From a virus, in IMG/VR virus record IMGVR_UViG_3300042922_001062, positions 15,478 through 79,477 of that record: a stretch of 64,000 nucleotides of DNA; one strand, 5' to 3'. Numbering within the stretch: the first letter of the stretch is position 1; every line of letters begins with the position of its first letter. Shown here piece after piece: positions 11,753 to 32,612 of the stretch. Below the pieces are notes generated by a model. That model was given only the letters and a program-made list of their open reading frames with translations. It ran no database searches and was not told the origin of the DNA. The translations under genes and the position numbers were made by a program.

Positions 11753-12059
11753 AGGTGACGCCAAGGCGCAAGACCGCCACCGCAACGCGCTGTCACCATG
11801 GCGCGCCTGGTACCACACCGAGCGCTGGCAGCGGCTGCGCCTGAAGATATTCGAGAGGGATGCCTACACCTGCCAGCGCACCGGAGAGGTCTGTGCCGGG
11901 CGGCACCCCGCCGCAAACAGCCCCGTGGCGAACCACATCCGCCCGCACAAGGGCGACCCGGCGCTGTTCTGGGATGAGGACAACCTCGAGACCGTGACCA
12001 AGGCGGTGCATGACGGCATCGTGCAGGCGGAGGAGCGGCGCGATGATACTCGCCCTTGA
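11682..12059 (+). CDS. Terminase-associated HNH endonuclease (start uncertain)
   Basis: WY.TERWQRLR..IFERD.Y.C, NHIRPHKGD..LFWD..NL; located upstream of terS like HK97 gp74. Confidence 0.85.
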   Translation: MQKRRLRNLRPRLAAAKPRLGYVEGDAKAQDRHRNALSPWRAWYHTERWQRLRLKIFERDAYTCQRTGEVCAGRHPAANSPVANHIRPHKGDPALFWDEDNLETVTKAVHDGIVQAEERRDDTRP

Positions 12060-12485: not shown

Positions 12486-12597
12486 GGGGGGAGGGTCAAA
12501 AATCGACCATGGGTCAACCTACGGACCGGCGCCCCCTACATGCAGAGATTTTTTCCTCCCTGGACAAATTTCGGGGTGCGTACCAGCACTGCGTACT
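12486..12597. other. Putative helper cos/packaging initiation region
   Basis: Intergenic, between HNH and terS: G-run, GTCAAAA, ACCGGCGCCCCC, AGAGATTTTTT and TGCGTAC repeats; copied in the satellite. Confidence 0.75.
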
Positions 12598-12601
12598 GCC
12601 G

Positions 12602-13171
12602 ATGAGCGATCAGAACTCCACCATCGACTGGCCGGCGATCGAGCGTGATTTTCGTGCTGGATCAATGTCTAACCGCCAACTCGCTGATTGGTACTCGATC
12701 TCGGAAGGCGCGATCCGCAAGCGGGCGAAGAAGGAAGGTTGGACGAAGTCCGGTACGCAGCCGAAAGTGCGTACCGAGAGCGCGCACCGCGCTCCTCTCG
12801 CTCCGACGCCCACAACACCGGAGACCACTGCGCCGGAGGCCATTGTCAGCCGGGGCCGCAATCTCACGCTCCGGCTTCTCGACGAACTCGAGGCCACCAC
12901 CAGCCGCATCGGCGAGCTGGAGATGATGATTGACGCTGTAGCCGACGGTGAAGACGCAGAAGAGCAACGCAAGGTCTTGAAGCAGATCATCTCGCTCAAG
13001 CAGCGCGCTGAAATCCTGAAGTCGCTCGCGCTGTCGGCAAAGACCCTTTCCGAAACGACAACCGCCGCTCCGGCCGGCAAGAAGGCCGAGAAGCAAGCCG
13101 CTGCGGAGAGGGTGGCAAGCAAGTTCGGTGTCCGTACCCCGCCTAAGCTGGTGGTCGACAACAAGCCATGA
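12602..13171 (+). CDS. terS: Terminase small subunit
   Basis: [21 protein letters not shown]...[17 protein letters not shown]; overlaps the terL start. Confidence 0.82.
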
Positions 13172-14847
13172 AGCCGTGGTCCACTGCCTGTCCTGATTGG
13201 GAACGACGGATCGTTGCCAAGCAGTCGCTGATCCCGTTCGCGCCGCTCTTCCCGTCGGAAGCAGAAGCCGCCCTGGAGGTCTTCAAGGCGCTGAAGATCG
13301 TCGACGCTCCTGGCAGTCCAACATTCGGAGAAGCCTGCGAGCAGTGGGTGTTCGACTTCGTCGCCGCCATCTTCGGCGCGGCGGATCCGGAGACGGGCTC
13401 CCGGCTGATCCGAGAGTTCTTCCTGCTGATCAGCAAGAAGAACAGCAAATCGACGATCGCGGCCGGCATCATGCTCACTGCCCTGATCGTCAATTGGCGC
13501 CTCTCGGCGGAGTTGCTCATCCTGGCTCCGACGATCGAAGTCGCCGACAATTCGTTCAAGCCGGCGGCCGATATGGTCCGCCACGATGAGGAACTCTCAG
13601 ATCTCCTGCATGTGCAGGACCATATCCGAACCATCACGCACCGCGTCACCAAGGCCTTCCTGAAGGTGGTCGCTGCGGACGCTGACACAGTGTCCGGCAA
13701 GAAGGCCGCCTTCGTTCTCATGGACGAGCTCTGGGGTTTCGGAAAGAAGCCGCGCGCTGCTGCGATGCTGCGAGAGGCGACGGGTGGTCTCGTCTCGCGG
13801 CCGGAAGGCTTCGTGATCTATCTCTCAACCCAGTCCGACGAGGAACCCGCTGGCGTCTTCAAGGCCAAGCTGGACTATTTCCGGGGCGTTCGCGAAGGCA
13901 CGATTGTCGATCCGACTAGTCTGCCGGTGTTGTATGAATTTCCGGAGCCAATGGTCGAAGCGACGTCGTATCTCGACCCGGCGAACTTCTACATCACGAA
14001 CCCCAACATCGGACGGTCAGTCGATCGGGGCTGGCTGGAAGATGAATATCGCAAGATCAAGGATGCGACCGGCGGCGAGCTGCAGGTCTTCTTGGCGAAG
14101 CATCTGAATGTCGAGATCGGTCTCCGCCTCGCACAGGATCGTTGGTCAGGAGCCGGCTATTGGCCTCGCTGTGCCCACCCGGCGCTGCGCGACCTCGATG
14201 TGTTCCTGGGCCGCTGCGACGTTGTCGTCGCGGGTGGTGACGGTGGAGGTCTCGACGATCTCTTCGGGCTCGTTTTGATCGGCCGTGACCGCGATACGCG
14301 AAAGTGGCTCCTTTGGGCGCACGCGTGGGCGCATCCTGACGTGCTTGAGCGCCGACAGGAAATCGCTCCGCGGCTGCGAGATTTCGAAGCCGAAGGCTCG
14401 CTCACCATCTGCAAGCACCCGACACAGGATCACGAAGAGATCGCTGCCATTCTTCAGCGGGTTCATCGCGCGGGGCTTTTGCCGGAAGAAGCTGCGATTG
14501 GACTTGATCCCTTCGGCGTGACCGCTCTCATCGACGTGCTGATCGAGGCGGGCATCAGCGAAGACCAGATCATCGGTATCGCTCAGGGCTACAAGCTGAA
14601 CGGCGCCGTGCTTGGCCTGGAGCGCAAGCTGGCCGACGGCACCGTCGAACATGACGGCTCGACCATGATGAACTGGGTGGTCGGCAACGCGAAGGTGCAG
14701 AAGCGCGGCAATGCCGTGCTGGTGACCAAGGAAATCGCTGGCAAGGCCAAGATCGATCCACTCATGGCGGCCTTCAACGCAACGATGCTGATGGCGCGTA
14801 ATCCCGAGCCGAAGCAAACCCCTTCCTATCAGATGATCATCATCTGA
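13168..14847 (+). CDS. terL: Terminase large subunit
   Basis: ISKKNSKS Walker A, MDELW Walker B, STQ coupling motif, GDGGGLDDL and KIDPLMA nuclease motifs. Confidence 0.95.
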
Positions 14848-14876: not shown

Positions 14877-15976
14877 ATGAACCGGATGTATTCGGTCCTC
14901 ACCGTCAAGGCGGTGGAGGATGACCAGCGCATTATCCGCGGCACCGCCACCACGCCGTCGCCGGACCGCATGGGCGATATCGTCGAGCCGCTCGGCGTGA
15001 CCTTCCAGAACCCGCTGGTGCTGCTTCACCAGCACGACAGCGACCGGCCGGTCGGCACGGTCACCTTCGACAGGCCGACGGCGAAGGGCATCACCTTCGA
15101 GGCGAGGCTCCCGACGATCGAAGAGCCCGGGCCGCTGAAAGACCGCGTCGACACCGCCTGGGGCGAGATCAAGGCCGGCTTGGTCCGTGCCGTCTCCATC
15201 GGTTTCCGAGCGCTCGAATACTCGTGGATGGATGATGGCGGCATCCGCTTCATCTCCACCGAGGTGCTCGAGCTCTCTCTCGTCTCCGTTCCGGCCAACG
15301 CCGAGGCGGTGATCTCCACCATCAAGTCGATCGACGCCCCTGTGCTCGCCGCGACCGGCAAGGGGCCGAAGGCGTCCGATCGGCCTGCACCTCCCGGCGT
15401 CTCGGGGAAATCCGTCAAACCAGTGAACCTGAGGCCGAAGGAGGCCAGGACCATGAAGACCATCGCTGAGCAGATTGCTGCTCTCGAAGCGTCGCGGCAG
15501 ACCAAGGCCGCGCGCATGGCTGAAGTCATGCAGAAGAGCATCGACGAGGGCCGCTCGACCGACGCCGCGGAGCAGGAGGAGTTCGACACCCTTGAGCAGG
15601 AAGTGTCCGCGCTCGACGGCGACCTCAAGCGCCTCCGCGCGCTGGAGAAGGCGCAGGCCGCCACCGGGAAGCCGGTGATCGCCAATCAGATCCGGACGGC
15701 CGAGCAGGGCACCACCGCGCGTTCGGGTGTCACCCTGAAGTCCGCGGCGCCGGATAAGGGCATCCGCTTCGCGCGGTACGCCAAGTGCCTCGCCATCTCC
15801 ACCAAGACCCATCAGTCCGTGGTGTCGGTGGCCGAGGCCATGTACGGCGGCAAGGATGACGACTTCATCGACATCGTGAAGGCCGCTGTCTCGGCGATGA
15901 CCACCGGCAACACCGATGCGCTCATCGGCAACGAGGGCGGTTTCGCCGACTTCGTGGAATTCCTCCGCCCGATGAC
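14877..15976 (+). CDS. Prohead protease-major capsid fusion, 5' part (interrupted by the satellite; reads on to a stop at 16004)
   Basis: HK97-type protease motifs DRMGDIV, LLHQHD, AVSIGF, ELSLVSVPAN, then coiled-coil delta domain and capsid start. Confidence 0.92.
15959..15976 (+). repeat. attL core (18-bp direct repeat)
   Basis: ATTCCTCCGCCCGATGAC, identical to 31721-31738. Confidence 0.95.
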
Positions 15977-16024
15977 GAGTGTCAACCAAGCGGTCGCGAT
16001 TTAGCGAACACTTTCAATATGTTG

Positions 16025-16049
16025 AGCCCGGCCGTGCGCCGGGCTTTTT
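16025..16049 (+). terminator. Rho-independent terminator just inside attL
   Basis: AGCCCGGC-CGTGC-GCCGGGCT followed by TTTT. Confidence 0.82.
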
Positions 16050-16079
16050 CGTTTCCGTAGTGTCCACAGCGTTCAAGAA

Positions 16080-16092
16080 AATCAATGGCTTA
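16080..16092 (+). promoter_or_regulatory. IHF binding site (second, one-mismatch site at 16012-16024)
   Basis: AATCAA-TGGC-TTA matches WATCAA-N4-TTR exactly. Confidence 0.65.
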
Positions 16093-16114
16093 CACGGGCA
16101 CCCGGTGCCTCCAT

Positions 16115-16132
16115 GCGACAAATGAGCGACAA
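16115..16132 (+). repeat. Putative integrase arm-type sites (left arm)
   Basis: GCGACAA twice, 11 bp apart; the same arrangement occurs at 31669-31686. Confidence 0.65.
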
Positions 16133-16152
16133 CGTAATCGAGGGAACTGGCT

Positions 16153-16425
16153 GTGAACGCGACAAAAAAAGCCGAAGGTGAAATCCTCTACGGGGTAAAG
16201 GCCATCGCGAAGTTTCTCGGGGTGACGCGCCGGCAAGCGCAACACCTCGTCGACTCCAAGGCGGTGCCAAGCTTCAAGATGGGGCGGACGGTGTGCGCCC
16301 GGCCCGAGCGGGTGCGAAGCGTGATTGAAGCAGCGGAGAACGGCAGGGCCGCGCCAAGCGATCAGGTGGACCAACCGCAGGACGGCGGGCAGCTTAACCT
16401 TCTCGGCGGCGGCGAACATGGCTAG
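16153..16425 (+). CDS. AlpA/excisionase-like HTH protein
   Basis: [19 protein letters not shown]...[13 protein letters not shown]; paralogue of 29218-29613. Confidence 0.75.
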
Positions 16426-17482
16426 CGCCAGTATGCTCCCGATCGTCACGGTGTCGAATGGCATCGTGATTGCCTCCAGCCGCGACGTGGCGGCCTATTT
16501 CGACGCAGACCATCGCGTGGTGCTGCTGGCGATCGATACGCTCATGGTTGAGGCCCCCGACGTAGCCGAGGCACACTTCCGCGAGCACCACGGCGAGGCC
16601 AGGCACTACGACATGACGCGCGGTGGCCTAGCGCTGCTGGCGCGCTCGCTGAGCGGTCCGCAGGTCGGGCGGTGGCGTGAGCGCTATCTCGAAGCCTTCG
16701 ACCGCCAGCAGCGCGCGCTGGGGCAGGGCAGCGCGCTCTCGGTGCGTCAGCATCAGCCGAGTCCGTCGCCGGCGTTGGTGCCTGCCCTGCCGGACAACCT
16801 TGCCGATGGTGAGCCTCTCACGATGTCGAGCCGGGAGATCGCCGACCTCACCGGCAAGGAGCACGACAACGTCCGCCGGGACATCAAGAACCTCGCGGAT
16901 GGGCTTTCCCTCAGCTTTGAGGAAAAGTCCGAACCGTCGGCAGGCGGGCGCCCCTCGAAGGTGTTTCTCCTTCCGAAGCGTGAGTGCCTGATCCTCGTCT
17001 CGGGGTACAGCATCGAGCTGCGTGCCCGTATCATCGATCGCTGGATGGAACTTGAGGTGCGGCAGGCGGACCCGGTGGCGATGTTCAACCCGTCCGATCC
17101 GCGCATCGTGTCGGCCGTGCTGTCCCATTGGCATCAGGAGGCCACGACGGCACACGCAGCGCTTGCCAAGGCCGAGGGCACGCTGGCGCGGATCGAGACC
17201 ACTGCCGGCTCTCTCTGCATCACGGACGCTGCGAAGGCGCTCTCGCACCCGCCCAAGGCGCTGTTCGCCAAGCTCTACCGCAACCATTGGACCTATCGGC
17301 GCGGTGGCAAGGGCGATTGGCTGGGCCATGCCGACAAGTGCCGTGCCGGCCTGCTGGATCACCAGCCTACGACTTATCAGCGTGACGGCGAGACGGTGAT
17401 CGGCACGCAGGTCGTCGTGACACCCAAGGGATTGCGGAAGCTGGCCGAGCTGCTCGCTCACGATCCGGATTGGAGGGACTGA
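16418..17482 (+). CDS. Antirepressor-like protein: two Rha-type domains plus a KilA-C (ANT) domain
   Basis: [31 protein letters not shown]...[29 protein letters not shown]...VTPKGL. Confidence 0.85.
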
Positions 17483-17709
17483 TGCCCGACATCATCGACG
17501 TCGACTGGGAATGCTGTGACGCCGAGGGTGAATCCTTTGAGCACCACGCCGAGCCGGACAAGGTGGCGGAAGGCCTGCTGATCGACGAGCCAGTGCTGGT
17601 GCGCTACCCCAACGGCCGTATAGCTGATGGCAACCGCATCGTGGTGACGGAGCGTGGCCTGGAGGCGCTGAAGTCCTTCGTCATCGAGGAATCGAAGGGC
17701 AGCCACTGA
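17482..17709 (+). CDS. Small protein resembling the KilA-C C-terminus
   Basis: RIVVTERGLEALK versus [13 protein letters not shown] in the upstream gene; TGATG coupling. Confidence 0.5.
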   Translation: MPDIIDVDWECCDAEGESFEHHAEPDKVAEGLLIDEPVLVRYPNGRIADGNRIVVTERGLEALKSFVIEESKGSH

Positions 17710-17820
17710 GGGGGGGAGGTCAAAAGGTCAGACGGCGTCCGTCTCTGGACCGGCGCCCCCTACATGCAGAGATTTTTTCCTCCCTGGACAAATTCGGGGT
17801 GCGTACCAGCGCCGCGTACT
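17710..17820. repeat. Satellite copy of the helper putative cos region
   Basis: 17747-17820 matches 12523-12597 at 72/75 positions; upstream G-run and GTCAAAA also conserved. Confidence 0.9.
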
Positions 17821-17919
17821 ACGTAATATCCATATGATATCAGGCAGATAGCCTCGGTACGCACCCTGCGTACCGCGCGTACTAAGTGCGCACTGCGTAC
17901 CACTGATAGCAGAGGCCCC

Positions 17920-17995
17920 GGGGGGGTATGCGGAACGTCAGGGACGCCCTTCTCTGCACCGGCGGCCTCACCAAAACTCTCGCAAAGCCAGATTG
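17920..17995. other. Second, diverged cos-like element
   Basis: G7 run, GTCAG, TCTCTGCACCGGCG with the same G-run to ACCGGCG spacing (38 vs 39 bp). Confidence 0.55.
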
Positions 17996-18005
17996 AGGTC
18001 CCGGA

Positions 18006-18377
18006 ATGTCTAATCTGGCTTCCGAGATGAGCTTCGCGGCGCGCGTCGATGAGCGCGAGCGGATGATGCTGCAGGCGATCAGCCATGCGGGATGGTGGAT
18101 GTCGCCCGACGGCCGGATCGGCGAACGGGATGCCGCGGCGCTCCTGGGGTACGGACACCCGGATTCATTCCGGAACGCGAGACGTCGCGCGGATCCTGGT
18201 GGGTGGCCACGTGTATTTCGCCTCGGCGGGAACGGAAACAAGCTGACCTATCAGGTCCGAGATCTGGCGGAGTTCGTCGAGCGCAAAGCAAATCCGCCGG
18301 CCGAAACCTACGATATTTTCCGCAAAGTCAATCGCGCGGGATCGGCGCTCTCCGACGCCCGTCGTAAGCTTGCTTGA
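18006..18377 (+). CDS. Putative DNA-binding protein (MerR/AlpA-like HTH)
   Basis: IGERDAAALLGY...SFRNAR...GGWPRVFR...LTYQVRDLAEFVE. Confidence 0.6.
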   Translation: MSNLASEMSFAARVDERERMMLQAISHAGWWMSPDGRIGERDAAALLGYGHPDSFRNARRRADPGGWPRVFRLGGNGNKLTYQVRDLAEFVERKANPPAETYDIFRKVNRAGSALSDARRKLA

Positions 18378-19426
18378 CCTTGATAAGGAGCGAGCTGATG
18401 CGCATCAATTCCGCCGGACACCTGCCCGCGATCATGGGCTTTCTCGCCCGGGCGCACCTTGCCGGTGTTTCGCCCTTGGAGATCGCGGCGAAGGATGGTG
18501 CTCCGCCCGACCTTCAGCTCCTCGTCAGGGCTGCGACCGGTGCCGTCATGCTCGGCGACGTCGCTGCTGCTGGCGCGCTGCGCGCGGCGGTCGAAACCTT
18601 CATCGGGACGCTGCGCGGGCGCTCCATATTCTACACGCTCCTCGCTGATGGCGCGTTCGTCCGCGCGCCGATCCGCACACGGCTCACAGCAGTCGAGAAC
18701 GGCGTGGTCGCCTACGTCGTGAGCGAGGGGCGTGCGAAGCCGGTTTCGAGGATCGGGCTCGACGCCGCGGGACTGGAACGCGCCAAGGCCACTTCGCTCA
18801 TCGTGCTGACGCGCGAGGCTGTGTACGCATCCTCGCCGGCGCTGCTCGACTTCCTGACCTCTGAGCTGCAGGGCGCGGTCTCGGCGGCCGTCGACGCGGC
18901 CTTCATCGCAAGGATCATCGACGACGGCTCGCCGAGCCTCACGCCGACCTTCAGCGCGTCGGGAGCGGGCATCGACGACATCAGGTTTGACCTCCGGCGA
19001 CTGCTCGACGCCGTGAACGTCACGGGCAGCGGCCATCTGGCATGGCTGATGTCGGCAGACGTCGCGAACCGCCTCGCCGTGCTCGTGGAGCACTTTCCCG
19101 GTATGGCGCCGAACGGTGGGACATTGCTCGAGCAGCCGGCCTTCGTTTCCGAGGCCATCGACCCGGGCTCGCTGCACTGCCTCAACGCCGCGTCGATCGC
19201 GGCGGACAGCGAGGCCATCATCGTGCGGTCCAGCGACGTCGCCAGCGTCGTTATGGATACCGCCCCAGCGCAGGACAGCTCCACGCCGGCGGCGACGCAG
19301 AACGTGTCGATGTTTCAAACCAACTCGACCGCCGTGCTCGCGGAGGCGTTTTTCGGAGCGCAACGGGTGCGGCCGAACGCGCTGGCGACGCTGACGGACA
19401 TCGCCTGGGGCGACGTGGCCTCATGA
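18374..19426 (+). CDS. Satellite HK97-fold major capsid protein paralogue (no protease domain)
   Basis: Aligns with the helper capsid: FIGTLRGRSI/FVEFLRPMTI, VSEGRAKPV/VGEGKGKPL, QD...VSMFQTNS.A..AE. Confidence 0.85.
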   Translation: MTLIRSELMRINSAGHLPAIMGFLARAHLAGVSPLEIAAKDGAPPDLQLLVRAATGAVMLGDVAAAGALRAAVETFIGTLRGRSIFYTLLADGAFVRAPIRTRLTAVENGVVAYVVSEGRAKPVSRIGLDAAGLERAKATSLIVLTREAVYASSPALLDFLTSELQGAVSAAVDAAFIARIIDDGSPSLTPTFSASGAGIDDIRFDLRRLLDAVNVTGSGHLAWLMSADVANRLAVLVEHFPGMAPNGGTLLEQPAFVSEAIDPGSLHCLNAASIAADSEAIIVRSSDVASVVMDTAPAQDSSTPAATQNVSMFQTNSTAVLAEAFFGAQRVRPNALATLTDIAWGDVAS

Positions 19427-20250
19427 GCAGGGTCGATCCCGCTACCGCAGCAGCGCTGAATAAAATTGACGTCCGCGTCGCGGAGATCGACGCCGCGCTC
19501 AAACGCCTCGACGCTGATGACTACAAGCACTTCAAAGATTTGCACCGCGCCGGTGCAAACGAGAAGGTGCGGCAGCAGCTCAACGCGGAACGCGCGGTGC
19601 AGATGCACAACCGGGCGCGGGTGCTCGCAGGCGAGCCGGTTGAACAGCCAGCACCCACGGAGCAGGCCAAGGCACTGCGGCTGCCGCCGGTGGAGCTCTA
19701 TGGCAAGGCCGAGCGACCCTGCAGAATCGAGCCAGCCATTACCCGCAGAGACGACTTGGTCGGCGTTGGCGATAGAACCGCCGATGAGATTCTCGATGTC
19801 GCCGAAGTTGAAGAGCGCGTGTCAGCGGACATCGCGCAGGCGATCGAGGTCGCCCACGCCAAGATGCGGGAGGCAATGACGCGCAATCCCACGTACGCGT
19901 TCGACTTGTCGACGCTGATCATGCTGAAGACCACCATCATCCAGGCGATGGCGCAGGCGACAATCATCGAAGCCGTCGGCGGTGTGCTGCGGCGCGAGCT
20001 CGAGGTGAAGCTCACCGATCGGATCGCAGTGCTGGAAAAGCGGATCGAGGAGTTTGAGCGCGGCGGCTTCGAGTATCGCGGCATCTATCAGCGCGCCCAA
20101 GCCTACAGACGAGGTCAGGTCGTCACCCATGACGGAAGCATGTGGGTGGCCGCCAAGGACACCGTGCTGCCGCCGGGCGCGCCGGAAGGCATGAACGAGT
20201 GGACTTTGGCCGTTAAGCGTGGCCGGGACGGGAAGGACGCCACCCGATGA
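19423..20250 (+). CDS. Coiled-coil protein with a C-terminal domain paralogous to the helper collagen-like head protein
   Basis: YRGIY....Y.RG.VVT.DGSMW...WTLAVKRGRDGKDA versus helper YRGVF....Y..GDTVT.AGSLW...WTLAAKRGRDGKEA; ATGA coupling. Confidence 0.8.
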   Translation: MSRVDPATAAALNKIDVRVAEIDAALKRLDADDYKHFKDLHRAGANEKVRQQLNAERAVQMHNRARVLAGEPVEQPAPTEQAKALRLPPVELYGKAERPCRIEPAITRRDDLVGVGDRTADEILDVAEVEERVSADIAQAIEVAHAKMREAMTRNPTYAFDLSTLIMLKTTIIQAMAQATIIEAVGGVLRRELEVKLTDRIAVLEKRIEEFERGGFEYRGIYQRAQAYRRGQVVTHDGSMWVAAKDTVLPPGAPEGMNEWTLAVKRGRDGKDATR

Positions 20251-20432
20251 AAGAGCAAGCCGTCGCCCTAACGAAGCGGTGCGTTGCGGCCTTCGTCGAG
20301 AAGATGGGCAGGCAGCCGGATGCGCACGAGCTCGATCTGCTCGCTGCGGCCGCGTGCCGGCATCTCCAAGACCGCGAGCACATGCGCCGATGGCCCGCCG
20401 CGACGGCGTCCGGATCTTCCACGGTGAACTAG
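20247..20432 (+). CDS. Small hypothetical protein
   Basis: ATGA-coupled 61-aa ORF. Confidence 0.45.
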   Translation: MKEQAVALTKRCVAAFVEKMGRQPDAHELDLLAAAACRHLQDREHMRRWPAATASGSSTVN

Positions 20433-20466
20433 CTCAAGCCTAGACCTCATAGCCTTAGGTGAGGCG

Positions 20467-20757
20467 ATGCCAAACTCAGAGATGCTCACAACTTACTCCC
20501 ATGGTACCGTTTCAGTGACCAAGGGATCAAAGACCGTCCGGGGCAAAGGCGTTTTCTGGCTGGACGTGCGGTCGTGCGACAGCCTCGAAGCCGGGGACCG
20601 CTGCCTCACCACCATCGCCTCAGTAGACGCGACCGATTTCACCACATTGGAGCTTGCTGTGCCTTGGTGCGGCGAGACAGCGGAGGACGTCCCTTACGTG
20701 ATCCGCTTCGACGCTCCGCAGCGATTTCCCGGCTACAGGGGGCGCGCCGATGGCTGA
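20467..20757 (+). CDS. Stand-alone tail-fibre N-terminal (anchor) domain paralogue
   Basis: YSHGTVSV...TIAS...LELAVP....DVPYVIRFDAPQRF matches the first ~80 aa of both fibres. Confidence 0.75.
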   Translation: MPNSEMLTTYSHGTVSVTKGSKTVRGKGVFWLDVRSCDSLEAGDRCLTTIASVDATDFTTLELAVPWCGETAEDVPYVIRFDAPQRFPGYRGRADG

Positions 20758-21847
20758 CCTCTACAGCACCGGCACCGTCTCGGTGCCCAGCGGTGGCACG
20801 ACTGTTACGCTGACCGGGGGGCTCTTTAGCGGTGTTCTCGCCGGCGATACGATCGAGATCGGCGAGCTTCCCGCGAAGACGATCGCATCGCCGACCGACG
20901 CCAGTCATCTGGAACTGGCCGTCGCGGTGACGTCCGATCAGGTGGATGTCCCCTATGTGCTTCGCTTCGACGCCCCGTCGCGCTTCACCTCCGGCTATCT
21001 CGCGGAGCAGGTGCGGGCGCTGATCGCGCAGGCGGGCATCATCAAGGCCGCCCGGCCAAACTACGAGGTGCAGAGCCTCGGCGGCAACGCACCGCCTGGC
21101 TCTCCTGTGACGGGAGACATGTACGTCGTCGGCACCGCGCCGACCGGCGCATGGGCTGGGCGGGCGAATAATTTGGCGCAGTGGACCGGCTCGGCGTGGC
21201 TGTTCACAGCGCCGGATCGAGGAACGACGGTCGTTAGCGTGGCGACGGGTATTGTGTCGATCTGGGGCGGCGCGGCGTGGCTACCTTACATAGGCCCTGG
21301 CGCTTTCATGCAGACGCTGATGCCGGCGGCGACGCAGGCCGCGGCGCAGACTACGCTTGGGCTCGATAGGGCCGCCCGCACGCTCTGGACGGCGGATATC
21401 TCCACTCCTGTCGCGGCGATTAACGTCCCGCTCGCGGCGGCGTATCGGGCGTTCAAGCTGACCATCGGCTGCCTCACCGGCTCGGATGCGACAGCCAACT
21501 TGATACACCGCATCAGCCGCGACGGGTCCACGGTCGACACGGGTGCATCGGACTATCAGGGGTCTGCGCTTGTTGTCGTGGGTAGCGGAGTTTCCGCGGC
21601 GGCGCGGACGGCGTCGGATGCGTTTCTCGGCACGTTGACGGCCACGATGGTAGCAATGGACATCACGCCTGGCGCGGCCGGTCTGCCGTACATGTGCACT
21701 TCCCAGTCTATGGAGTTCGCCTCTGGATATCGTCTTGATTTCCGCGGTACCCGTGCCGCGAATGTCGGGCGCGCTCAGTTCATCCAGATCTACCCGTCAG
21801 CCGGCAATCTGACTGCTGGGACGCTGACGCTGGCCGGGTATCCGTGA
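20750..21847 (+). CDS. Satellite tail fibre / receptor-binding protein (DUF2793-like module, distinct C-terminus)
   Basis: First 177 aa are 153/177 identical to helper fibre 49412-50605; the C-termini are unrelated. Confidence 0.9.
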   Translation: MADLYSTGTVSVPSGGTTVTLTGGLFSGVLAGDTIEIGELPAKTIASPTDASHLELAVAVTSDQVDVPYVLRFDAPSRFTSGYLAEQVRALIAQAGIIKAARPNYEVQSLGGNAPPGSPVTGDMYVVGTAPTGAWAGRANNLAQWTGSAWLFTAPDRGTTVVSVATGIVSIWGGAAWLPYIGPGAFMQTLMPAATQAAAQTTLGLDRAARTLWTADISTPVAAINVPLAAAYRAFKLTIGCLTGSDATANLIHRISRDGSTVDTGASDYQGSALVVVGSGVSAAARTASDAFLGTLTATMVAMDITPGAAGLPYMCTSQSMEFASGYRLDFRGTRAANVGRAQFIQIYPSAGNLTAGTLTLAGYP

Positions 21848-21892
21848 CGCCCGCCGCCGGGCTTCGAGGTGGTGGCTCGGCGGTCAGATATG

Positions 21893-21918
21893 AAAAAGGC
21901 CGCCCCGAAGGGCGGCCT
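21893..21918 (-). terminator. Terminator for the minus-strand moron (possibly bidirectional)
   Basis: AAAA-AGGCCGCCC-CGAA-GGGCGGCCT. Confidence 0.75.
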
Positions 21919-21932
21919 CTCTCACCGTCCGG

Positions 21933-22250
21933 CTAGCACGGTGTCTGCTTATTGGTGCAATCGCGACGGCCGTCATCCGAATTGCCGCTGCCGGCGGCCT
22001 TGGCCTCGCCGGGGTTCATGGAGTTGTTGCGCCCCTCGCTGGGCATGGTCGATTTCGGCACACCGGAGCCAACGGCCGGGGACTGGTCCTTGTAGCGGCT
22101 CTCGGTGGTGCCCGAGCTATTGTCGGAGCCGGTTGTAGCTCCCGCCGTGGAACCCGAGTTCCCTTGGCCGCTGCTCTGGGCCATCACAGGTGTGCCGAGC
22201 GCCAGTAATGCTGCCAGCGTGGCGATGGAAGTCGTCTTGGCATAGTTCAT
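21933..22250 (-). CDS. Small secreted Ser/Gly/Thr-rich protein (moron)
   Basis: Signal peptide ending PVMA-Q, low-complexity body, C-terminal CxxxxxxC; AGGAGG RBS. Confidence 0.75.
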   Translation of the reverse strand: MNYAKTTSIATLAALLALGTPVMAQSSGQGNSGSTAGATTGSDNSSGTTESRYKDQSPAVGSGVPKSTMPSEGRNNSMNPGEAKAAGSGNSDDGRRDCTNKQTPC

Positions 22251-22274
22251 GAGTTCCTCCTTCGATATGAGGCG

Positions 22275-22299
22275 AACCCACAGCTCTAGATGACGTTCC
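22275..22299 (-). promoter_or_regulatory. EcfG/sigmaT-type promoter
   Basis: Minus strand GGAAC-N16-GGTT, 25 bp upstream of the start codon. Confidence 0.72.
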
Positions 22300-22464
22300 G
22301 ACCAAATTGGCCGCTGAGGTACACGGCTAATGCACCTCGCGCCAACGTGAGCACTTTCCTGCCAGGCGGCTATGTCGATTTATTCCTTCCGCGAATCGTC
22401 AATCATCGCCTCGATGGCCCCGATCATCACTTCGAGGTCGGCGATCAGATGCAGTAACGATTTG

Positions 22465-22578
22465 CTCGACTTCCGCGGCACCCGCATCGCCAATCCAGGC
22501 CGTGCGCAGTTCATCCAGATATACCCGTTCGCCGGTAATCTGGCAGCCGGCCCTCTCACGCTGAAGGACATTCTGTAG
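22465..22578 (+). pseudogene. Orphan 3' end of an alternative tail-fibre allele
   Basis: 114-bp diverged duplicate of 21734-21847 (LDFRGTR.AN.GRAQFIQIYP.AGNL.AG.LTL). Confidence 0.8.
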
Positions 22579-22589
22579 GAGCATCTCAC

Positions 22590-23027
22590 ATGAACATTCT
22601 GGACGTCGACGGCGTGATCAAGCCGGCCGACCCCGCCTGGATCGCCCAGCGCGCGCTTGACGCCCTCCCGGTGGCTCCGACGCCAGCGGACGTCATCGCC
22701 GAGCGCGAGCGGCGCCTGGCCCTCGGATTCGCCTACGACTTCGAAGACGAACGCGGCGTGCACCACATCGCGACCACCCCGGAAGACATGAAGGGCTGGG
22801 ACGAGGTGACCATGCTCGCCAACGCCGCCATCAATGCCGGCGTGGCGGCGACCGAGATCCTCATCCTCACCAGCACCGGCCCGGTCACCGTGACGGCCGC
22901 CGAGTGGCAGCAGGTGCTCCTCGCCTCGGCGAACTTCCGCCAGCCGATCTGGCAGACCAGCTTCGCGCTGCAGGCGATGGACCCGATCCCGGCTGACGTC
23001 ACCGACGACGTGCACTGGCCGGATTGA
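22590..23027 (+). CDS. Tail fibre assembly/chaperone-like protein (DUF4376-like)
   Basis: DVIAERERRLALGF...IPADVTDDVHWP; AGGAG RBS; follows the fibre 3' end. Confidence 0.7.
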   Translation: MNILDVDGVIKPADPAWIAQRALDALPVAPTPADVIAERERRLALGFAYDFEDERGVHHIATTPEDMKGWDEVTMLANAAINAGVAATEILILTSTGPVTVTAAEWQQVLLASANFRQPIWQTSFALQAMDPIPADVTDDVHWPD

Positions 23028-23231
23028 CCTCCCAAGCGCCGCACGGTCATGACCGCTCGAGTTGATGGGCCGCGCTTGGTCTATTCGGGCACGAGGAAAG
23101 CCCAGCAGAATCCTGATTATCCACCACTGGCCGGAAGAGATCGGAAAGGCCGCTGGCCACGGCAGTAGCGGCTTGAACAAGTCTCGCCCGGCGCGCCACA
23201 ATTGCGGATGGGCATCCGAATCTGTACCGAC

Positions 23232-23879
23232 ATGCAATGCGTCGTCGACTGGCTCTACACGTGGCAGACGCTCATCTCGGGCGTGTTGGCACTGGGGGCG
23301 GCGGCGATGACTGTGGGGCTTCTGCGGATCCAGATCGAGGACGAGCGCGCCCGACACCGTTCCCAGCGGATAGCTAAGACATTGGCGGCCCGAGCGACGT
23401 TGCCAGATGCCCTGAGCGACATCGCGCGATACACCCGGGAGTGCATGGCTTATCTCGTCGGCAAGCGAGCCGAGCCACCGTTGGCGCCGGCCGACGGGAT
23501 AGCCGCGATCAAGGGCGCAATTGAATTCTGCGATGGCGACCCGGCCACCGCTCTCTTCGCTCTCGCCAGCTATTATCAAGTCCAACGAGCCCGGCTGGCG
23601 GAACATCGAGTTCGCCGAGGTCCAGAAAATCTGGACCGAATGCGAGATTGTGCGCACCTCAGAGCGCTGAGCGATCGGCTATTCGATTACGCTCGAGGAG
23701 AAGGCCTCGATGTTCGGACGGGTCGGCCGGATCCTGAAGAAGTTGTGAGGGCACTTGGCCAGATCGTCGGGCCTGGACCCATGATGACTCGTCCGAACGA
23801 ACGTGCTCGGCTCGAGGCCTGGATAAGAGGCACTCCCTTACGCCCCGACGACGAAGATGAGGCCGAGGAAGACGAGTAG
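23232..23879 (+). CDS. Membrane-anchored hypothetical protein (satellite cargo)
   Basis: WQTLISGVLALGAAAMTV N-terminal TM helix; acidic tail. Confidence 0.65.
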   Translation: MQCVVDWLYTWQTLISGVLALGAAAMTVGLLRIQIEDERARHRSQRIAKTLAARATLPDALSDIARYTRECMAYLVGKRAEPPLAPADGIAAIKGAIEFCDGDPATALFALASYYQVQRARLAEHRVRRGPENLDRMRDCAHLRALSDRLFDYARGEGLDVRTGRPDPEEVVRALGQIVGPGPMMTRPNERARLEAWIRGTPLRPDDEDEAEEDE

Positions 23880-24170
23880 ACGTCGGCTTGGCGGGTGCTC
23901 GCCTCCACGGTCTCTCTCGATCCCCGATGCCGCCGAATTGACACTGCTGCCGATCATGATGAACGTGTAGTGGCGGCGTAGGCGCCATGCCGGGCGAGAG
24001 CCTCGGCCTGGCCCTGCAGATCCTGACGGCTTTCCTATTCGGAGCGGAACAGGAGTAGGGACTGCCTCAGAGAATCTTGATTTACGTCCCTATAGTCCGG
24101 CCGCCTTGCGGAGCGCGGCATTGATGCGATCCTGCCAGCCTGGCCCGTCCGAAGACGAACCTTAGTTCGT

Positions 24171-26600
24171 TCAGGCAGCCGCAGGCTTTTGCCGAGCCAC
24201 GTACATTGCCATAGGCACGCACGGCAAATGGTGATTCGAGCTCGACATGAGGAGCAATCGGTTCACGTTGTTGTCCTGGAACCCGCCGATCCGTATCACC
24301 GATTGCAGCCATCCGATGGAATGCGGCACTCTGGCCTTCTTGATAAGGCGTTGGATGGCTGTCCTACTTCGGGAATGTCGCGCCGCCAATTGCGCTTCGA
24401 AGTTTGGCTTCACTTCTTCCGCCTTCAGAGACTTTAGGTAGTTGAACGTGCGACGGATCACCGATCGGAACTCGACGAATTCAGGTGCTTCTCTCAAGCT
24501 AAGGATATCGTCGCACTGGGTCGGAAACTCCAGTGGGGCTGACCGGATGTCTGCCGCAAGCGAATGTAGCGTCGATGAAGTTCCCAAATAGCGGCGGTTC
24601 AAAGCTGCGTTCAGCTCCAGCCAACGATGCTTGCTGTCAGTGAGGATCTGCGCCCCCGTGGCTTGCGCCAAATACATGGCGATTTCGAAGTTGGGTGCCA
24701 ACTTCATGAGCTGGATCTGTCCACCTGTTTCGGGAGCCAAGCTCTCCGGTTGGAGCACGGCAAGCGGGTCGGCCTCTCGGAGCTGGCCGATTTGCGGCAT
24801 CAGTTCGTCGAGATCGACTGTTTCGCCCTGCGGCATTGCTCGAGCGATCTGATTGCGTAGCCCCTCTTCGGACAAAGCGAGGAGTGTGCGCTTGAAGTCG
24901 TCGCGCATCAGTTCCTCCATCCGAGGGTCGTTTGAAATCTCGAACTCAAGGCCGGATGCCCGCGCCCTGGCCATCGCCATCATTTGATCGCGCAGGTGGA
25001 TGTCGAAGTCACAAGGATCGGGGATCAGGTTGACCAGACCCGCCTCGACCAACGGCATCATGCTCACGAAGAAATGGATCGTCTTCAACAGTTCGCCCCG
25101 GTACTGACCCGGGTGCTCGGTCGGACGGAATTTCTTATTCAGGGTGCCGGGGTGGACGAAAGGGTGCTGAATCAGCATTTCACCGAAATACAGCGGCGAA
25201 CCAATCGCGAATTCGTTGATGTGCTGGGGATGGAGGGAGCCGGTATAGACCGATCGAAGCTGCCCGTCCGGCTTTGGGAGTAAGTCGAGCAGGTCGGTTT
25301 CCAGTGGCCATAGGCCTTCGTAAAGGCTATAGGCACTTGCAATCTTTTCGTCGGTCATCTCGCGCCGAACTTGGGTCCAGTCCTTTCTGTCCAGTTCAAG
25401 GAGGTTCGACAAGCCGCGGAGAAGCATAAGGTTTCGCTCGCGGATGCTCCTAGCCGTCCAGCTCGGCCTTAGCTCGGATGGCTTCGGCTCGCAGCATCTG
25501 GCGAAGAGGTCGCCGGACCCACAACCACAAGAGTCCTTCGGTTTCAGCGGTGACACCGGCAGATCCTTTTGAAGGAACGCGCGCGGCTTTTCTGACCGGC
25601 CAAACTCATCCTGATAGTGAACATGTCCGCTGTCGAATTTGGCAAACATTTCACCGCCAAAAAGGTGGAGTTCGGTCTCTGGTGGTCGTAGTGTCTCCCG
25701 CAACTCCTTCCAAGATTTCTTCACCGTTTTCTCTGGATAAAGCCATGCCTCGCGTCCAGCAGCGATGTATCTTTCGGAGCGAGCCTTGAGGATGAAGTTG
25801 ATCTCCGAGACTTGTTGATCATCGAGTTCGCGAGACCGGATGAAATCGATCGTCGATACCATCGTCGGATGAAAGTTCCGAGCGAAGGTCCGGTTCTCAA
25901 GCGGATTCACGTCCGGGTTCTTTGCATACTCAAGATTTGTCAGGATCAGGCAGTGGTCTGGTCCCAGAGGGAAGATGGTCTGCGAACCTTTCCATGCAAT
26001 TGCCGGATCGTCGGTTTGGTCGCAACCAAGGTCTGCGGGAGGAGCAGCATAGTTATAAATCGTTACCGGATGGTCGGTAATGATGAACTTGACAGAGGCA
26101 TTTCCCGCCGAGACAATCTCCCGGACGCCAGTGGTCCAAATGGTACAATTGAGAAAACGAATACCCTGCATCTCAAGCATAAGCTCATTCTGGGAAAGCT
26201 CAGGGTACTGTCGCTTTAGCCACTCTAGGCCCTTTGGAGTGCGAAGCTTTTGGATGTCGATATACTCGAAAAAGGTCTTGAAGTGGGAGTGCCATGCGGC
26301 CTTGTCCAAGCCAGAGAGGGCGCGGACCGCGTCCGCGCCGCGGGTGTCAATGTCGCCGAATAGTTGTCGCTCGATTTCATCGTTTACCGCCGTTCCAAAG
26401 AATGTTGAATAAAGATCCCTTTGAACGAACGCACGGGATGTTGGAGAGTCAAACAATGACCGCCCTGTGTTTTTTCCTCCATCCCTCCGTGTGAAAATCG
26501 GCGGTGACAAGTCGAGATAGAATAAGGTTCTGCCTCCGTCGGTGAGGAAGCGTTCTTGATACCATTGGGGAACGTAGTGATTATTTCTTCTTACTGACAT
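24171..26600 (-). CDS. DUF4238-domain protein with a SEC-C-like motif (candidate anti-phage)
   Basis: N-terminal HYVPQWY, FIITDHPV, IFPLGP; central CGCGSG..FARCC; AT-richer codon usage. Confidence 0.75.
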   Translation of the reverse strand: MSVRRNNHYVPQWYQERFLTDGGRTLFYLDLSPPIFTRRDGGKNTGRSLFDSPTSRAFVQRDLYSTFFGTAVNDEIERQLFGDIDTRGADAVRALSGLDKAAWHSHFKTFFEYIDIQKLRTPKGLEWLKRQYPELSQNELMLEMQGIRFLNCTIWTTGVREIVSAGNASVKFIITDHPVTIYNYAAPPADLGCDQTDDPAIAWKGSQTIFPLGPDHCLILTNLEYAKNPDVNPLENRTFARNFHPTMVSTIDFIRSRELDDQQVSEINFILKARSERYIAAGREAWLYPEKTVKKSWKELRETLRPPETELHLFGGEMFAKFDSGHVHYQDEFGRSEKPRAFLQKDLPVSPLKPKDSCGCGSGDLFARCCEPKPSELRPSWTARSIRERNLMLLRGLSNLLELDRKDWTQVRREMTDEKIASAYSLYEGLWPLETDLLDLLPKPDGQLRSVYTGSLHPQHINEFAIGSPLYFGEMLIQHPFVHPGTLNKKFRPTEHPGQYRGELLKTIHFFVSMMPLVEAGLVNLIPDPCDFDIHLRDQMMAMARARASGLEFEISNDPRMEELMRDDFKRTLLALSEEGLRNQIARAMPQGETVDLDELMPQIGQLREADPLAVLQPESLAPETGGQIQLMKLAPNFEIAMYLAQATGAQILTDSKHRWLELNAALNRRYLGTSSTLHSLAADIRSAPLEFPTQCDDILSLREAPEFVEFRSVIRRTFNYLKSLKAEEVKPNFEAQLAARHSRSRTAIQRLIKKARVPHSIGWLQSVIRIGGFQDNNVNRLLLMSSSNHHLPCVPMAMYVARQKPAAA

Positions 26601-26657
26601 TGCCCTTTAGCATCGCTCCCGCCGCTAGTTGCTGCAATTCTTACCGGCTTGGGCGAA

Positions 26658-30283: not shown

Positions 30284-30414
30284 CTATCCGCCCGGCGCCG
30301 CCTCGCGCTGGCGCCGGGCATTTCGATACGACATGAGAATTTCATCAAGGCATTGAGCATGCTGGGCTTTCCCGGGCTTCCTAAAGCTGCATGCGACAAC
30401 CGAGGCAAATCACC

Positions 30415-31713
30415 ATGGCGAGTGTTCGCAAGCGCAAGTGGATCCACAACGGCAAAGAGGGTGAAGCGTGGGTCGTCAACTATACCGACCAGGGGGGCAA
30501 GCGCCGGCAGAAGGCTTTCGACCGGAAGAAGGAAGCCGACGCTTATCGGACGGAGATCGAAGCGGAGATCAAGCAGGGAGTGCATACTGCTCTCAACGAG
30601 AGCGTGAAGGTCTCTGAGGCCGTGCGGGCGTTCTGCGTCGACTGCCAGAAGCGCGTGACGGCAGGAACGATGACGAATGGAGGATTCAAGAGCTACCGAT
30701 GGAAGCTCGAAAAGTACGCAGTGCAGAAGTTCGGCACCCGCAAGGTTTCCACGATCACGGCTGAGGAGGTGCAAGATTGGGTGGACGAGTTGCTGCGGAC
30801 GCTGTCGCCGACCTCTGTCACGGGCATCTACGTGGCCTTCGGCGTACTGCTATCGTTCGCGGTCCGGCGCCGTTGGGTGCGTAGGAACATCCTGCGGGAC
30901 ATGCCGTGCAAGCTACCGGCAAGGCCAAAGCGCAAGGCGGTGCCGACCAAGGCAGATATTTTGGCCCTGATGCACGCCGCATCTACGATGGAGCGCGGCG
31001 AGAACCTCCTGACGTTCGTCAATCGGCTGGTCGTTGTGGCCTGCGGCGTGTTCGGCGGCTTCCGCCCTGGAGAAACGTTCGGCCTTCAATGGGAGGACGT
31101 CGACTGGCAGAAGGGCGTCATCCACGTCCGCCACAGCCACACTAAAATGGACGGGCTGAAGGCGCCCAAGACCGAGGCGGGATATCGCGATGTTCCAATA
31201 ACCGCCCCCATTGATCGGGCCTTGCGGCAGTGCGCGCGCTACTGGACGATCCGCCGGCTTGCTGAAGGGCCGGGTTTCGGCAGCGATCACCCGAAGGCGA
31301 TCTTCTCGCGGATCGCGCGCATGTGGGAGGGCGAGTTTATCGCGGTGCGGCCGGAGGACCTGAAGGGGTTCGTAATCCTGACCAAGGTGGGCAAGCCGAT
31401 GACGGCGACGGCGAGCGCAACGACGTTCTGGTCCCGGCTGATGAAGGCGGCGGGCCTGCAAACGGAGGACGGGAAGAACCGCTTCACGCCGCACGCGCTG
31501 CGCCACGCCGCGGCGAGCCTGCTTATTGAGGCGGGTCTCGACGACATGAACCTGAAGCGCTTCATCGGGCACGCCTCGATCCAGACGACGAAGGATATCT
31601 ACGGGCACCTTTTCCCGACAGACGAACGGATGGTTGCAACAACGGCAGCGATTGCGCGCGATCTGGACGCAACAACAGAGCGACAAACATCTGTAAGGCA
31701 CCCGCTGCAATAG
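30415..31713 (+). CDS. int: Tyrosine recombinase (integrase)
   Basis: GFRPGE (R), PKTEAG (K), HALRH, IGHAS, IYGH (Y); N-terminal arm-binding-like domain; stop codon 7 bp before attR. Confidence 0.95.
   Translation: MASVRKRKWIHNGKEGEAWVVNYTDQGGKRRQKAFDRKKEADAYRTEIEAEIKQGVHTALNESVKVSEAVRAFCVDCQKRVTAGTMTNGGFKSYRWKLEKYAVQKFGTRKVSTITAEEVQDWVDELLRTLSPTSVTGIYVAFGVLLSFAVRRRWVRRNILRDMPCKLPARPKRKAVPTKADILALMHAASTMERGENLLTFVNRLVVVACGVFGGFRPGETFGLQWEDVDWQKGVIHVRHSHTKMDGLKAPKTEAGYRDVPITAPIDRALRQCARYWTIRRLAEGPGFGSDHPKAIFSRIARMWEGEFIAVRPEDLKGFVILTKVGKPMTATASATTFWSRLMKAAGLQTEDGKNRFTPHALRHAAASLLIEAGLDDMNLKRFIGHASIQTTKDIYGHLFPTDERMVATTAAIARDLDATTERQTSVRHPLQ
31669..31686 (+). repeat. Putative integrase arm-type sites (right arm, inside the int 3' end)
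   Basis: GCAACAA-CAGA-GCGACAA, 11-bp period; a further GCAACAA at 31636. Confidence 0.6.
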
Positions 31714-31720: not shown

Positions 31721-31738
31721 ATTCCTCCGCCCGATGAC
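31721..31738 (+). repeat. attR core (18-bp direct repeat)
   Basis: ATTCCTCCGCCCGATGAC. Confidence 0.95.
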
Positions 31739-32612
31739 CATCGTCGGCCGCTTCGGCACCGGCAACATCCCGGCGCTGACCCGCATCCCCTTCCGGGTGC
31801 CGCTGATCTCGGAGACCTCCGAGAGCGACGCCCAGTGGGTCGGTGAGGGCAAGGGCAAGCCGCTGACCAAGTTCGGTGTCGGTCGCACCGAGCTCACTCC
31901 CCTGAAGATCGCCACCATCGCTGTCCAGACGATGGAACTCATCCGCGACAGCTCGCCGTCTTCGGACGTGCTGGTGCGGAACTCGCTGGCGAAGGCCATC
32001 GCGAAGCGCACCGACCTCTCGTTCATCGATCCGTCCTCGGCGGCTTCCGCCGGCGTCCGCCCGGGTTCGGTTCTGAATGGTGTCGCCGCCACGGCGAACA
32101 GCACGGCCACGGGCGCCGACGGTGTCCGCGAGGATGTCCAGGCGATCATTGGCGCCTTCGTGGCGGCGAACAACCCGCTGCAATCCGGCGTCTGGGTGAT
32201 GTCGGCGACCTACGCGCTTCGGCTCATGATGATGCTGAACCCGCTGGGCCAGCGCGAATTCCCCGGCATCACGATGCAGGGCGGCACCTTCTTCGAGCTG
32301 CCGGTCATCGTGTCGAACTACCTCGGCGACTACGTAGCCCTGGTCAATGCCGAGGACATCTGGTTCGCCGATGAAGGCGGGGTCGACGTCGCCATGTCGA
32401 CTGAAGCGTCGCTGGAGATGGTGGACAACCCGACGCAGGACAGCGGCGCCGAAACTCCGGTCGATTCCGAGATGGTGTCGATGTTCCAGACCAACTCGGT
32501 CGCCTTCCGCGCCGAGCGCACGCTGAACTGGGCGCGCCGCCGCTCCAGCGCGGTAGCGTGGATGGACAACATCACCTGGAGTGATCCGGCCGAAGAGAGC
32601 GCCGGCGTCTGA
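31734..32612 (+). CDS. Major capsid protein, 3' part (HK97 fold)
   Basis: AQWVGEGKGKP, LTPLKIA.I, SMFQTNSVAFRAER; in frame with the 5' part across the att core. Confidence 0.93.
   Translation: MTIVGRFGTGNIPALTRIPFRVPLISETSESDAQWVGEGKGKPLTKFGVGRTELTPLKIATIAVQTMELIRDSSPSSDVLVRNSLAKAIAKRTDLSFIDPSSAASAGVRPGSVLNGVAATANSTATGADGVREDVQAIIGAFVAANNPLQSGVWVMSATYALRLMMMLNPLGQREFPGITMQGGTFFELPVIVSNYLGDYVALVNAEDIWFADEGGVDVAMSTEASLEMVDNPTQDSGAETPVDSEMVSMFQTNSVAFRAERTLNWARRRSSAVAWMDNITWSDPAEESAGV

Follow-up and report, generated by a model that had tools for sequence, protein, structure and literature searches.

The stretch of viral DNA analysed here, 64,000 nucleotides covering positions 15,478 to 79,477 of the IMG/VR record IMGVR_UViG_3300042922_001062 (hereafter the window), holds a prophage, the helper, whose gene for a fused protease-capsid protein is split in two by an integrase-bearing element of 15,762 bp lying between 18-bp repeats; the element carries a capsid gene of its own, satMCP, whose product has the HK97 fold, is paralogous to the helper capsid protein and lacks a protease. 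That the element is a satellite of the helper is strongly supported; that satMCP has a function like that of Ccm, the capsid homologue of the satellite SaPIbov5, is plausible by analogy. The features on which the argument is built are listed below, in positions of the window.

14877..16004, + strand: truncated helper gene, comprising the S78 protease, the scaffold, the first ~25 residues after the K-A-A-V motif and 8 foreign residues at its end
15959..15976, + strand: attL core, 18 bp, ATTCCTCCGCCCGATGAC
16024..16046, + strand: intrinsic terminator just inside attL
18398..19426, + strand: satMCP, the satellite capsid paralogue, 342 aa from ATG 18398
30391..31713, + strand: the element's tyrosine integrase, with 7 nt between its end and attR
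31721..31738, + strand: attR core, 18 bp, identical to attL
31739..32612, + strand: remaining 3' part of the helper's capsid gene, encoding the shell domain, in frame with 14877-15976 when the element is left out
12523..12597, + strand: helper copy of a segment shared with the element, downstream of HNH (11682-12059) and just upstream of the terS ATG 12602
17747..17820, + strand: satellite copy of this terS-upstream segment, non-coding, 96% identical over 75 nt to helper 12523-12597
12577-12775: four YGCGTACY octamers in the helper
17800..17901: cluster of six YGCGTACY octamers adjoining the satellite copy of the shared segment

Removal of the element in silico yields an uninterrupted protease-capsid fusion protein of 657 aa, the two pieces of which cover positions 10-372 (14877-16004) and 363-626 (about 31722 to 32612) of the PHROG family phrog_617, "major head protein". 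The truncated frame retains protease and delta/scaffold region, as a first, sequence-only reading of the window had claimed: the His and Ser motifs of the S78 protease and a coiled-coil scaffold are both present at the sequence level. The attachment (att) site encodes FLRPMT, residues 362-367 of the fusion protein, ~25 residues after the K-A-A-V motif; aligned by eye, this region would be the equivalent of the HK97 N-arm ("LRRLTI"). Empty sites are found in contigs from three sequencing runs of two studies other than the probable source study (X2 and X3 from one, X6 from the other), which join 15958 to 31721 and skip 15,762 nt, 18 letters being ambiguous; the helper is about 99.7% identical in these contigs and the element is essentially absent. 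Because the contigs join exactly, the element is a discrete mobile insertion and the helper exists without it. Its integrase is of the P4 type (phrog_1, with a weak, sub-cut-off match to Arm-DNA-bind_4); integrase, satMCP and the helper late genes are all encoded on the + strand.

The capsid gene of the element had been described as a 350-aa open reading frame (ORF) at 18374-19426 (+ strand); the frame is indeed there, and its start is most likely not TTG 18374, which adds eight residues, but ATG 18398, because an AGGAG at 18386-18390 stands seven bases ahead of the latter. The 342-aa form is identical to the database protein P0001, the GC content at third codon positions (GC3) is 0.85 in frame, and the ORF is a genuine, intact coding gene. 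Colinearity with the capsid part of the helper gene, in spite of strong divergence, is borne out by BLASTP against the frame 31530-32612 (32% identity over 276 aa, E 8e-27), and the motifs quoted for it lie where they had been placed (VSEGRAKPV at 18719 and VGEGKGKPL at 31839; VSMFQTNS at 19304 and at 32475). The Pfam family PF05065 (Phage_capsid) is matched over 13-279 of its 280 positions with 32.2 bits, the cut-off being 24.2, and PHROG matches are phrog_617, at positions 312-626 (E 9e-21), and phrog_10. The HK97 fold, which had been put forward for checking, is confirmed by an AlphaFold2 model built on a 60-sequence alignment (predicted local distance difference score, pLDDT, 88.4; predicted template-modelling score, pTM, 0.86): the top structural match is HK97 Prohead II (Z 13.6, root-mean-square deviation 3.9 over 221 residues), Foldseek/VIA-align matches Bxb1, Cozz and HK97 at E 6e-12 to 1e-9, and all 50 of the 50 top structural entries are HK97-fold capsids or encapsulins. 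Ccm is absent among these 50 matches listed, which is informative neither way.

The model comprises ~52 helical N-terminal residues followed by a complete HK97 shell domain. Ahead of the conserved R-A-A motif stand these ~52 residues in satMCP versus ~336 in the helper, where they form protease and scaffold; satMCP keeps the last ~50 scaffold residues, the [K/R]-A-A motif and the full shell domain, without protease or long scaffold. The [K/R]-A-A(T)-V motif is conserved in satMCP, in the helper and in the capsid paralogues of three further elements introduced below (L001, L077 and L078), and may be the maturation cleavage site; the mature N-terminus would then be expected directly behind the [K/R], near residue 45 of the 342-aa form. 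The codons of satMCP equivalent to the att site are diverged, with 4 of 21 bases matching, and nowhere along the gene are more than 12 of the 18 core bases matched. Two simple origins of the gene could be ruled out: a recent duplication of the helper gene, by the 32% identity and by the separate clade in which satMCP falls (see below), and a replacement 3' end restoring the target, since satMCP lies 2.4 kb from attL in an operon of its own and extends ~80 residues upstream of the att-equivalent position. The GenBank phage collection contains no close relative, the best match being 30% identical.

The claim that the satellite has no protease, portal or terminase gene is confirmed by a six-frame search of the whole 79.5-kb record and by Pfam and PHROG scans of the ORFs: the six-frame search gave one Peptidase_S78, one portal and one TerL, each in the helper. 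At the DNA level, the likeness between element and helper is limited to two stretches, namely the 75-nt segment upstream of terS (96%) and the N-terminal part of a tail-fibre gene (82% over 521 nt). A packaging (cos-like) site is the likeliest reading of the shared segment, because of its location downstream of HNH and upstream of terS; the cos of HK97-like phages is situated in the same way, between HNH (upstream) and terS (downstream). Alternatively, the segment is possibly a late promoter. The octamer YGCGTACY occurs 14 times in the window, against 5.3 expected, and 10 of these 14 occurrences fall within the satellite and helper clusters, which could be binding repeats for the terminase small subunit. 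Together, the copied 75-nt segment, the octamer arrays and a fibre N-terminus 85% identical in protein sequence suggest that the satellite depends on this helper.

The same arrangement recurs elsewhere. A search of IMG/VR with the integrase identified two more proviruses, L077 (record G403) and L078 (record G404), with integrases 66-67% identical, in which a protease-capsid gene is cut at the same FVEFLRP codons as in the window, the cores measuring 11 bp. L077 is from the IMG/VR record UViG_2823949316 and may stem from the genome of an isolate. These sister elements, of 9,907 bp (L077) and 10,495 bp (L078), each contain an HTH (helix-turn-helix) gene and a stand-alone capsid paralogue that matches phrog_617 from position 294 or 273, and in both the integrase adjoins the 3' capsid fragment, which is followed by the portal gene. 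Comparison of each record with itself revealed in each sister element 43-59 nt (86-96% identity) of the terS-upstream region of its own helper; the cos-like DNA of the window has no match in the G403 or G404 records. Because the copied terS-upstream DNA thus co-varies with the helper, satellite and own helper appear to be functionally matched. The capsid paralogues of L077 and L078 are 67% identical to each other and, unlike satMCP, lie on the phage-type side of the tree described below; since related elements hold paralogues of different lineage, the trait has been kept and the capsid gene itself exchanged. The G404 element has two copies of the helper terS-upstream segment, flanking the capsid paralogue on each side (24619-24661 and 26916-26973 of the record, about 2420-2462 and 4717-4774 of L078), and also Neck1-like and tail-tube-like ORFs.

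Beyond these elements, satMCP belongs to a large family of stand-alone capsid proteins. An exhaustive HMMER search returned 2,106 related clusters, of which 113 have an E below 1e-30; the best family matches are nearly all 330-360 aa long and align from about residue 10-50 to the end. Phage-type homologues, sampled from 48 loci, measure 470-704 aa where no contig end truncates them, with one exception of 381 aa, and are fused to a protease or have a long scaffold. In a profile-profile comparison, columns 10-349 of the stand-alone family align with columns 307-680 of the fusion proteins (probability 100%, E 5e-57); from this range it follows that the stand-alone proteins retain the final two helices of the scaffold, the [K/R]-A-A(T)-V motif and a shell domain in its entirety. 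A maximum-likelihood tree sets 63 of the 64 stand-alone proteins apart from the phage-type proteins, on a branch with 99% support in the Shimodaira-Hasegawa-like approximate likelihood ratio test (SH-aLRT), and satMCP groups with P0002 and P0010, apart from the helper capsid protein.

PHROG scans of six other genomic loci encoding members of the family placed an integrase and a primase near the capsid-like gene in five (L001, L002, L068, L074 and L075):

L001 (Rhodanobacter): tRNA-Leu, integrase, primase-helicase, 175-aa ORF, 122-aa excisionase/regulator-like ORF, capsid paralogue, opposite-strand genes
L002 and L068 (an alphaproteobacterial metagenome-assembled genome, MAG): integrase, primase, capsid paralogue, and a small protein with the C-terminal domain of window 20074-20250
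L069 (same MAG as L002 and L068): capsid paralogue with two in-frame TGA stops; tblastn matches to primase and integrase are weak
L074 and L075 (two other genomes): integrase and primase adjoining the capsid paralogue

In L001 the capsid paralogue is the sole structural gene of the island, and no att repeat was found within the flank examined. Helper-type terminase or portal genes were not detected by tblastn in the flanks of the six loci, a search that distant homologues could escape. A scan of IMG/VR with the capsid alignment retrieved helper-type phages only, at 27-44% identity, and a class-level survey gave matches in 3 of 401 genomes, one being the centre genome, which is too sparse for statistics. 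The MAG that holds L002 and L068 (G002; contigs C23, C22, C9, C5 and C35; L060-L071) has at least three full satellite-type capsid genes plus fragments. In L074 (genome G169), the capsid gene and its small partner are followed by a tape-measure-like gene (7065-9056, - strand), an adjacency that may reflect either the capture of a tail gene or another insertion of the helper-embedded kind, into a tail module. A 4.1-kb viral contig (L055, 339-3642) has terL, a 381-aa capsid gene and a small gene for the C-terminal domain, with no protease between them; its capsid protein sits between the phage-type and stand-alone groups in the tree.

A satellite lodged inside its helper's capsid gene and carrying a capsid gene of its own is an arrangement already published, for the helper-embedded phage-inducible chromosomal islands of E. 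coli (HE-PICI; PMC10111431): the 11capE island disrupts the lambda-E-type capsid gene of a helper prophage and bears its own capsid gene, 201 such cases being reported, and in HE-PICI a segment of the cos region is shared with the helper and the zones follow the order Int/AlpA, Bro, Replication, Late (PMC10111431). The present element resembles Eco567.11capE in its own capsid homologue with a diverged att-equivalent stretch, in a segment shared with the helper, from the cos region there and cos-like here, in the lack of terS, in an HTH_17/AlpA-type gene and a Bro-network protein, and in a dynamic late zone (PMC10111431). It differs in several respects: the helper is not lambdoid, its TerL being closest to that of Burkholderia phage Bcep176 (about 60% identical); the capsid protein is of PF05065 and fused to an S78 protease, versus lambda E; insertion is into the region of a fusion gene that comes shortly behind its K-A-A-V motif; tail-fibre genes and candidate defence cargo are carried; and the four-zone layout is incomplete, in that Int, HTH_17, Rha/KilAC and late genes are present and no primase/replication zone was found. 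New with respect to published HE-PICI are the helper type, the protease-fused HK97-type capsid, the target position, the apparent lack of a primase and the fibre module. Found at one codon position of three proviruses, the arrangement carries the helper-embedded lifestyle beyond the lambdoid phages of enterobacteria.

With SaPIbov5 Ccm the likeness concerns the protein itself (PMC5052747, PMC8569155): both are satellite-encoded HK97-fold homologues of the helper capsid protein, ~350 aa long and with a shortened N-terminal scaffold, Ccm having 355 aa, a delta domain of 87 versus 128 aa and 24% identity to the helper capsid protein (PMC8569155). Identity to the helper is low in both cases (24% for Ccm, 32% for satMCP) and neither satellite has a protease; SaPIbov5 carries the helper cos (PMC8569155), and the element of the window a cos-like copy of the terS-upstream DNA. 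Unlike here, the host of Ccm is Gram-positive and the protease of its helper is a separate gene, not fused to the capsid; moreover, size redirection and the occupancy of the pentons of T=4 heads have been demonstrated for Ccm (PMC8569155) and would, for satMCP, be a matter of analogy. Lone capsid homologues are also found in the Gram-negative islands EcCICFT073 (c1499/c1500) and PmCI172 (PMC6092414), with capsid families and helpers different from those described here; EcCICFT073 has an adjacent head-decoration gene, to be compared with the gene that follows satMCP, and PmCI172 makes small heads (PMC6092414). The cf-PICIs (capsid-forming islands; bioRxiv 10.1101/2022.09.08.507074) likewise have a capsid protein in a clade apart from phage homologues, but encode capsid, protease, portal, connectors, HNH, TerS and TerL, whereas only the capsid is encoded here; a cf-PICI identity of the element is ruled out, protease, portal and TerL being single in the record and located in the helper.

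The reading that we favour, and to which we would assign an about even chance, is that satMCP is a functional HK97-fold shell subunit of a helper-embedded satellite, with a role similar to that of Ccm. The integrase would place the satellite at a single codon position (FLRPMT) of the helper protease-scaffold-capsid fusion gene; upon induction, the satellite would excise, restoring the helper capsid gene and late operon, and satMCP would be made alongside the helper late proteins and co-assemble with the helper fusion protein on the helper portal. The fusion protein would be the sole source of protease and full scaffold in this assembly, which satMCP would bias to satellite-suited heads, probably smaller, as Ccm does in SaPIbov5, and the helper terminase and HNH would package the satellite DNA via the copied cos-like site. 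Since protease and scaffold are fused to the helper shell domain and satMCP is without both, a mature head with satMCP must be of mixed composition or draw on the truncated product of the helper. Expression, co-assembly and processing of satMCP, as well as any change of head size, are inferred only. The system sharpens the question of what lone capsid homologues do in Gram-negative satellites, where they are the commonest late gene and the one knocked out showed no effect on phage interference.

Several observations weigh against such a role. In the source metagenome run no excision junction was seen. The argument that the shell is suited to a ~16-kb genome, advanced in the sequence-only reading, is weakened by the sizes of the sister elements, since 9.9, 10.5 and 15.8 kb point to no single head size and trimers in full-size heads fit equally: a trimer of 15.76-kb units comes to 47.3 kb and could likewise fill a full-size head, should the helper genome measure about 45-47 kb. 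Named phages whose TerL is about 60% identical have genomes of mostly 37-56 kb and G403 minus its element measures 41.8 kb; the three elements amount to about 0.22-0.37 of helper length, so that small heads or multimers in full heads both fit. A penton placement like that of Ccm is not deducible from sequence. Finally, deletion of the capsid homologue of EcCICFT073 left lambda plaquing abnormal (PMC6092414).

It is conceivable, if on balance unlikely, that satMCP is a captured late gene, dispensable or with a subtle effect on fitness, and that multimers of the satellite genome go into ordinary helper heads. A precedent exists in c1499 of EcCICFT073 (PMC6092414, PMC10111431); the late zones of Gram-negative islands are dynamic and filled by capture (PMC10111431), and a capsid gene, present in 21 of 29 reference Gram-negative islands, is yet unneeded for transfer (PMC10111431). 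The other lineage to which the sister paralogues belong and the neck- and tail-tube-like ORFs of L078 are in keeping with such capture, but a capsid paralogue has been kept in all three elements of this integrase/att type despite replacement of the gene, islands of the small size of L001 have no other structural gene, and the family is large, length-constrained and intact. Pure interference, in which satMCP would act as a poison subunit that blocks or misdirects helper heads without productive satellite heads, shielding the host population or giving the satellite an advantage, shares much of its ground with the Ccm-like reading. Ccm also strongly suppresses helper yield (PMC8569155); the candidate defence cargo of the element (PDC-S32 and PDC-S48) would suit pure interference, whereas a cos-like site and tail-fibre genes are useful only if the satellite obtains heads, and we regard it as very unlikely.

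A distinctly unlikely alternative concerns the integrated state: the shell protein of the satellite and the truncated helper product, with its protease and scaffold, would together form a complete capsid pair, so that the first heads would be of satellite type or the satellite would compensate for the gene that it disrupts. The catalytic motifs and the scaffold are kept in the truncated ORF, the gene is split directly behind the scaffold and the K-A-A-V motif, and a recognised class of islands encodes a homologue of whichever gene is disrupted (PMC10111431); against this, the portal and tail genes are cut off from the helper late promoter by the terminator at 16024-16046 and the 15.8-kb insert, packaging of the composite, while unexcised, should fail on its two cos-like sites, which have the same orientation and stand 5.2 kb apart, and the truncated scaffold shows no similarity that would point to binding of the satellite shell. 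A more far-reaching proposal, quite improbable when its parts are taken jointly, holds that the satellite lineage, maybe independent of the enterobacterial HE-PICI clade, cuts protease-scaffold-capsid fusion genes at a single codon position, leaving a protease-scaffold half that satMCP uses in trans, this two-piece capsid system building satellite heads before or instead of helper heads; on a broader view, the ~345-aa clade (>100 clusters at 50% identity) would consist of capsid proteins specific to satellites throughout Proteobacteria, and would supply integrase-primase-capsid islands with their main piracy gene. Least probable of all, and by our estimate extremely so, is that the element is what is left of a second, decaying prophage inside the first, with satMCP as its relic capsid gene or as an encapsulin-like, non-virion shell. 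The order of terS-upstream DNA, capsid, fibre-like gene with the shared C-terminal domain and tail fibre is colinear in both genomes, and encapsulins are among the structural matches; however, the ORF is unbroken and has a ribosome-binding site and a high GC3, the element ends sharply and its site is found empty elsewhere, three proviruses have the layout in common, satMCP groups with the stand-alone clade and not with its helper, and there is no cargo or encapsulin context, Pfam assigning satMCP to the phage capsid family.

The other genes of the element and of the helper that bear on these comparisons are the following:

11682-12059: helper HNH
12479/12602-13171: helper terS, start ATG 12602
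13168-14847: helper terL
33038-34396: helper portal
16153..16425, + strand: HTH_17/excisionase-like gene just inside attL
29404-29550: paralogous HTH of the 16153-16425 gene
16325..17482, + strand: Rha/KilAC antirepressor-type (Bro-network) protein
18006..18377, + strand: 123-aa ORF directly upstream of satMCP, with weak excisionase/HTH-type similarity (E 0.002)
19429..20250, + strand: gene after satMCP, whose product has a coiled-coil N-terminal part and a C-terminal domain
20467..21847, + strand: satellite tail-fibre genes

The stop of the 123-aa ORF overlaps TTG 18374; the ORF has no Pfam or PHROG match, and in L001 and L075, too, a small ORF of comparable kind stands ahead of the capsid paralogue. 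The C-terminal domain of the 19429-20250 product is shared with the helper collagen-like protein at 34149-35669 (weak CBM5/12-like match), and the pair formed by a capsid gene and a gene of this type recurs in L002, L068 and L074; by comparison with c1499/c1500 of EcCICFT073, the product may be a head fibre or decoration partner. The small partner genes lie at 10691-11029 in L002, ~11032-11298 in L068 and 9613-9981 in L074, and in helper-type phages a collagen-like gene after the portal ends in the same C-terminal domain. Among the tail-fibre genes, the 20750-21847 product is 85% identical over its first 180 residues to the helper fibre at 49412-49951. No primase or replication gene was recognised among the element ORFs scanned, and the primases of L001 and L002, used as tblastn seeds, gave no match; Rfam (including C4 and isrK) returned nothing anywhere in the element at E up to 1, by which a new RNA is neither supported nor countered.

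The ends of the helper prophage were not found, nor was a second integrase by BLAST. A 15-bp AT-rich direct repeat occurs at two low-GC transitions (12745-12759 and 71505-71519 of the whole record, G000, the latter being window 56028-56042); taken as helper ends, it would give a helper of 43.0 kb without the satellite, the match being at chance level (E 0.42). The element also contains opposite-strand cargo, including candidate defence genes: in a lower-GC stretch (24171-29017, - strand) are encoded a DUF4238 protein of 809 aa, a DEDDh exonuclease with a match to PADLOC PDC-S48 and, with a match to PDC-S32 (E 6e-54), an AbiJ_NTD4 protein, all three being candidates for anti-phage defence.

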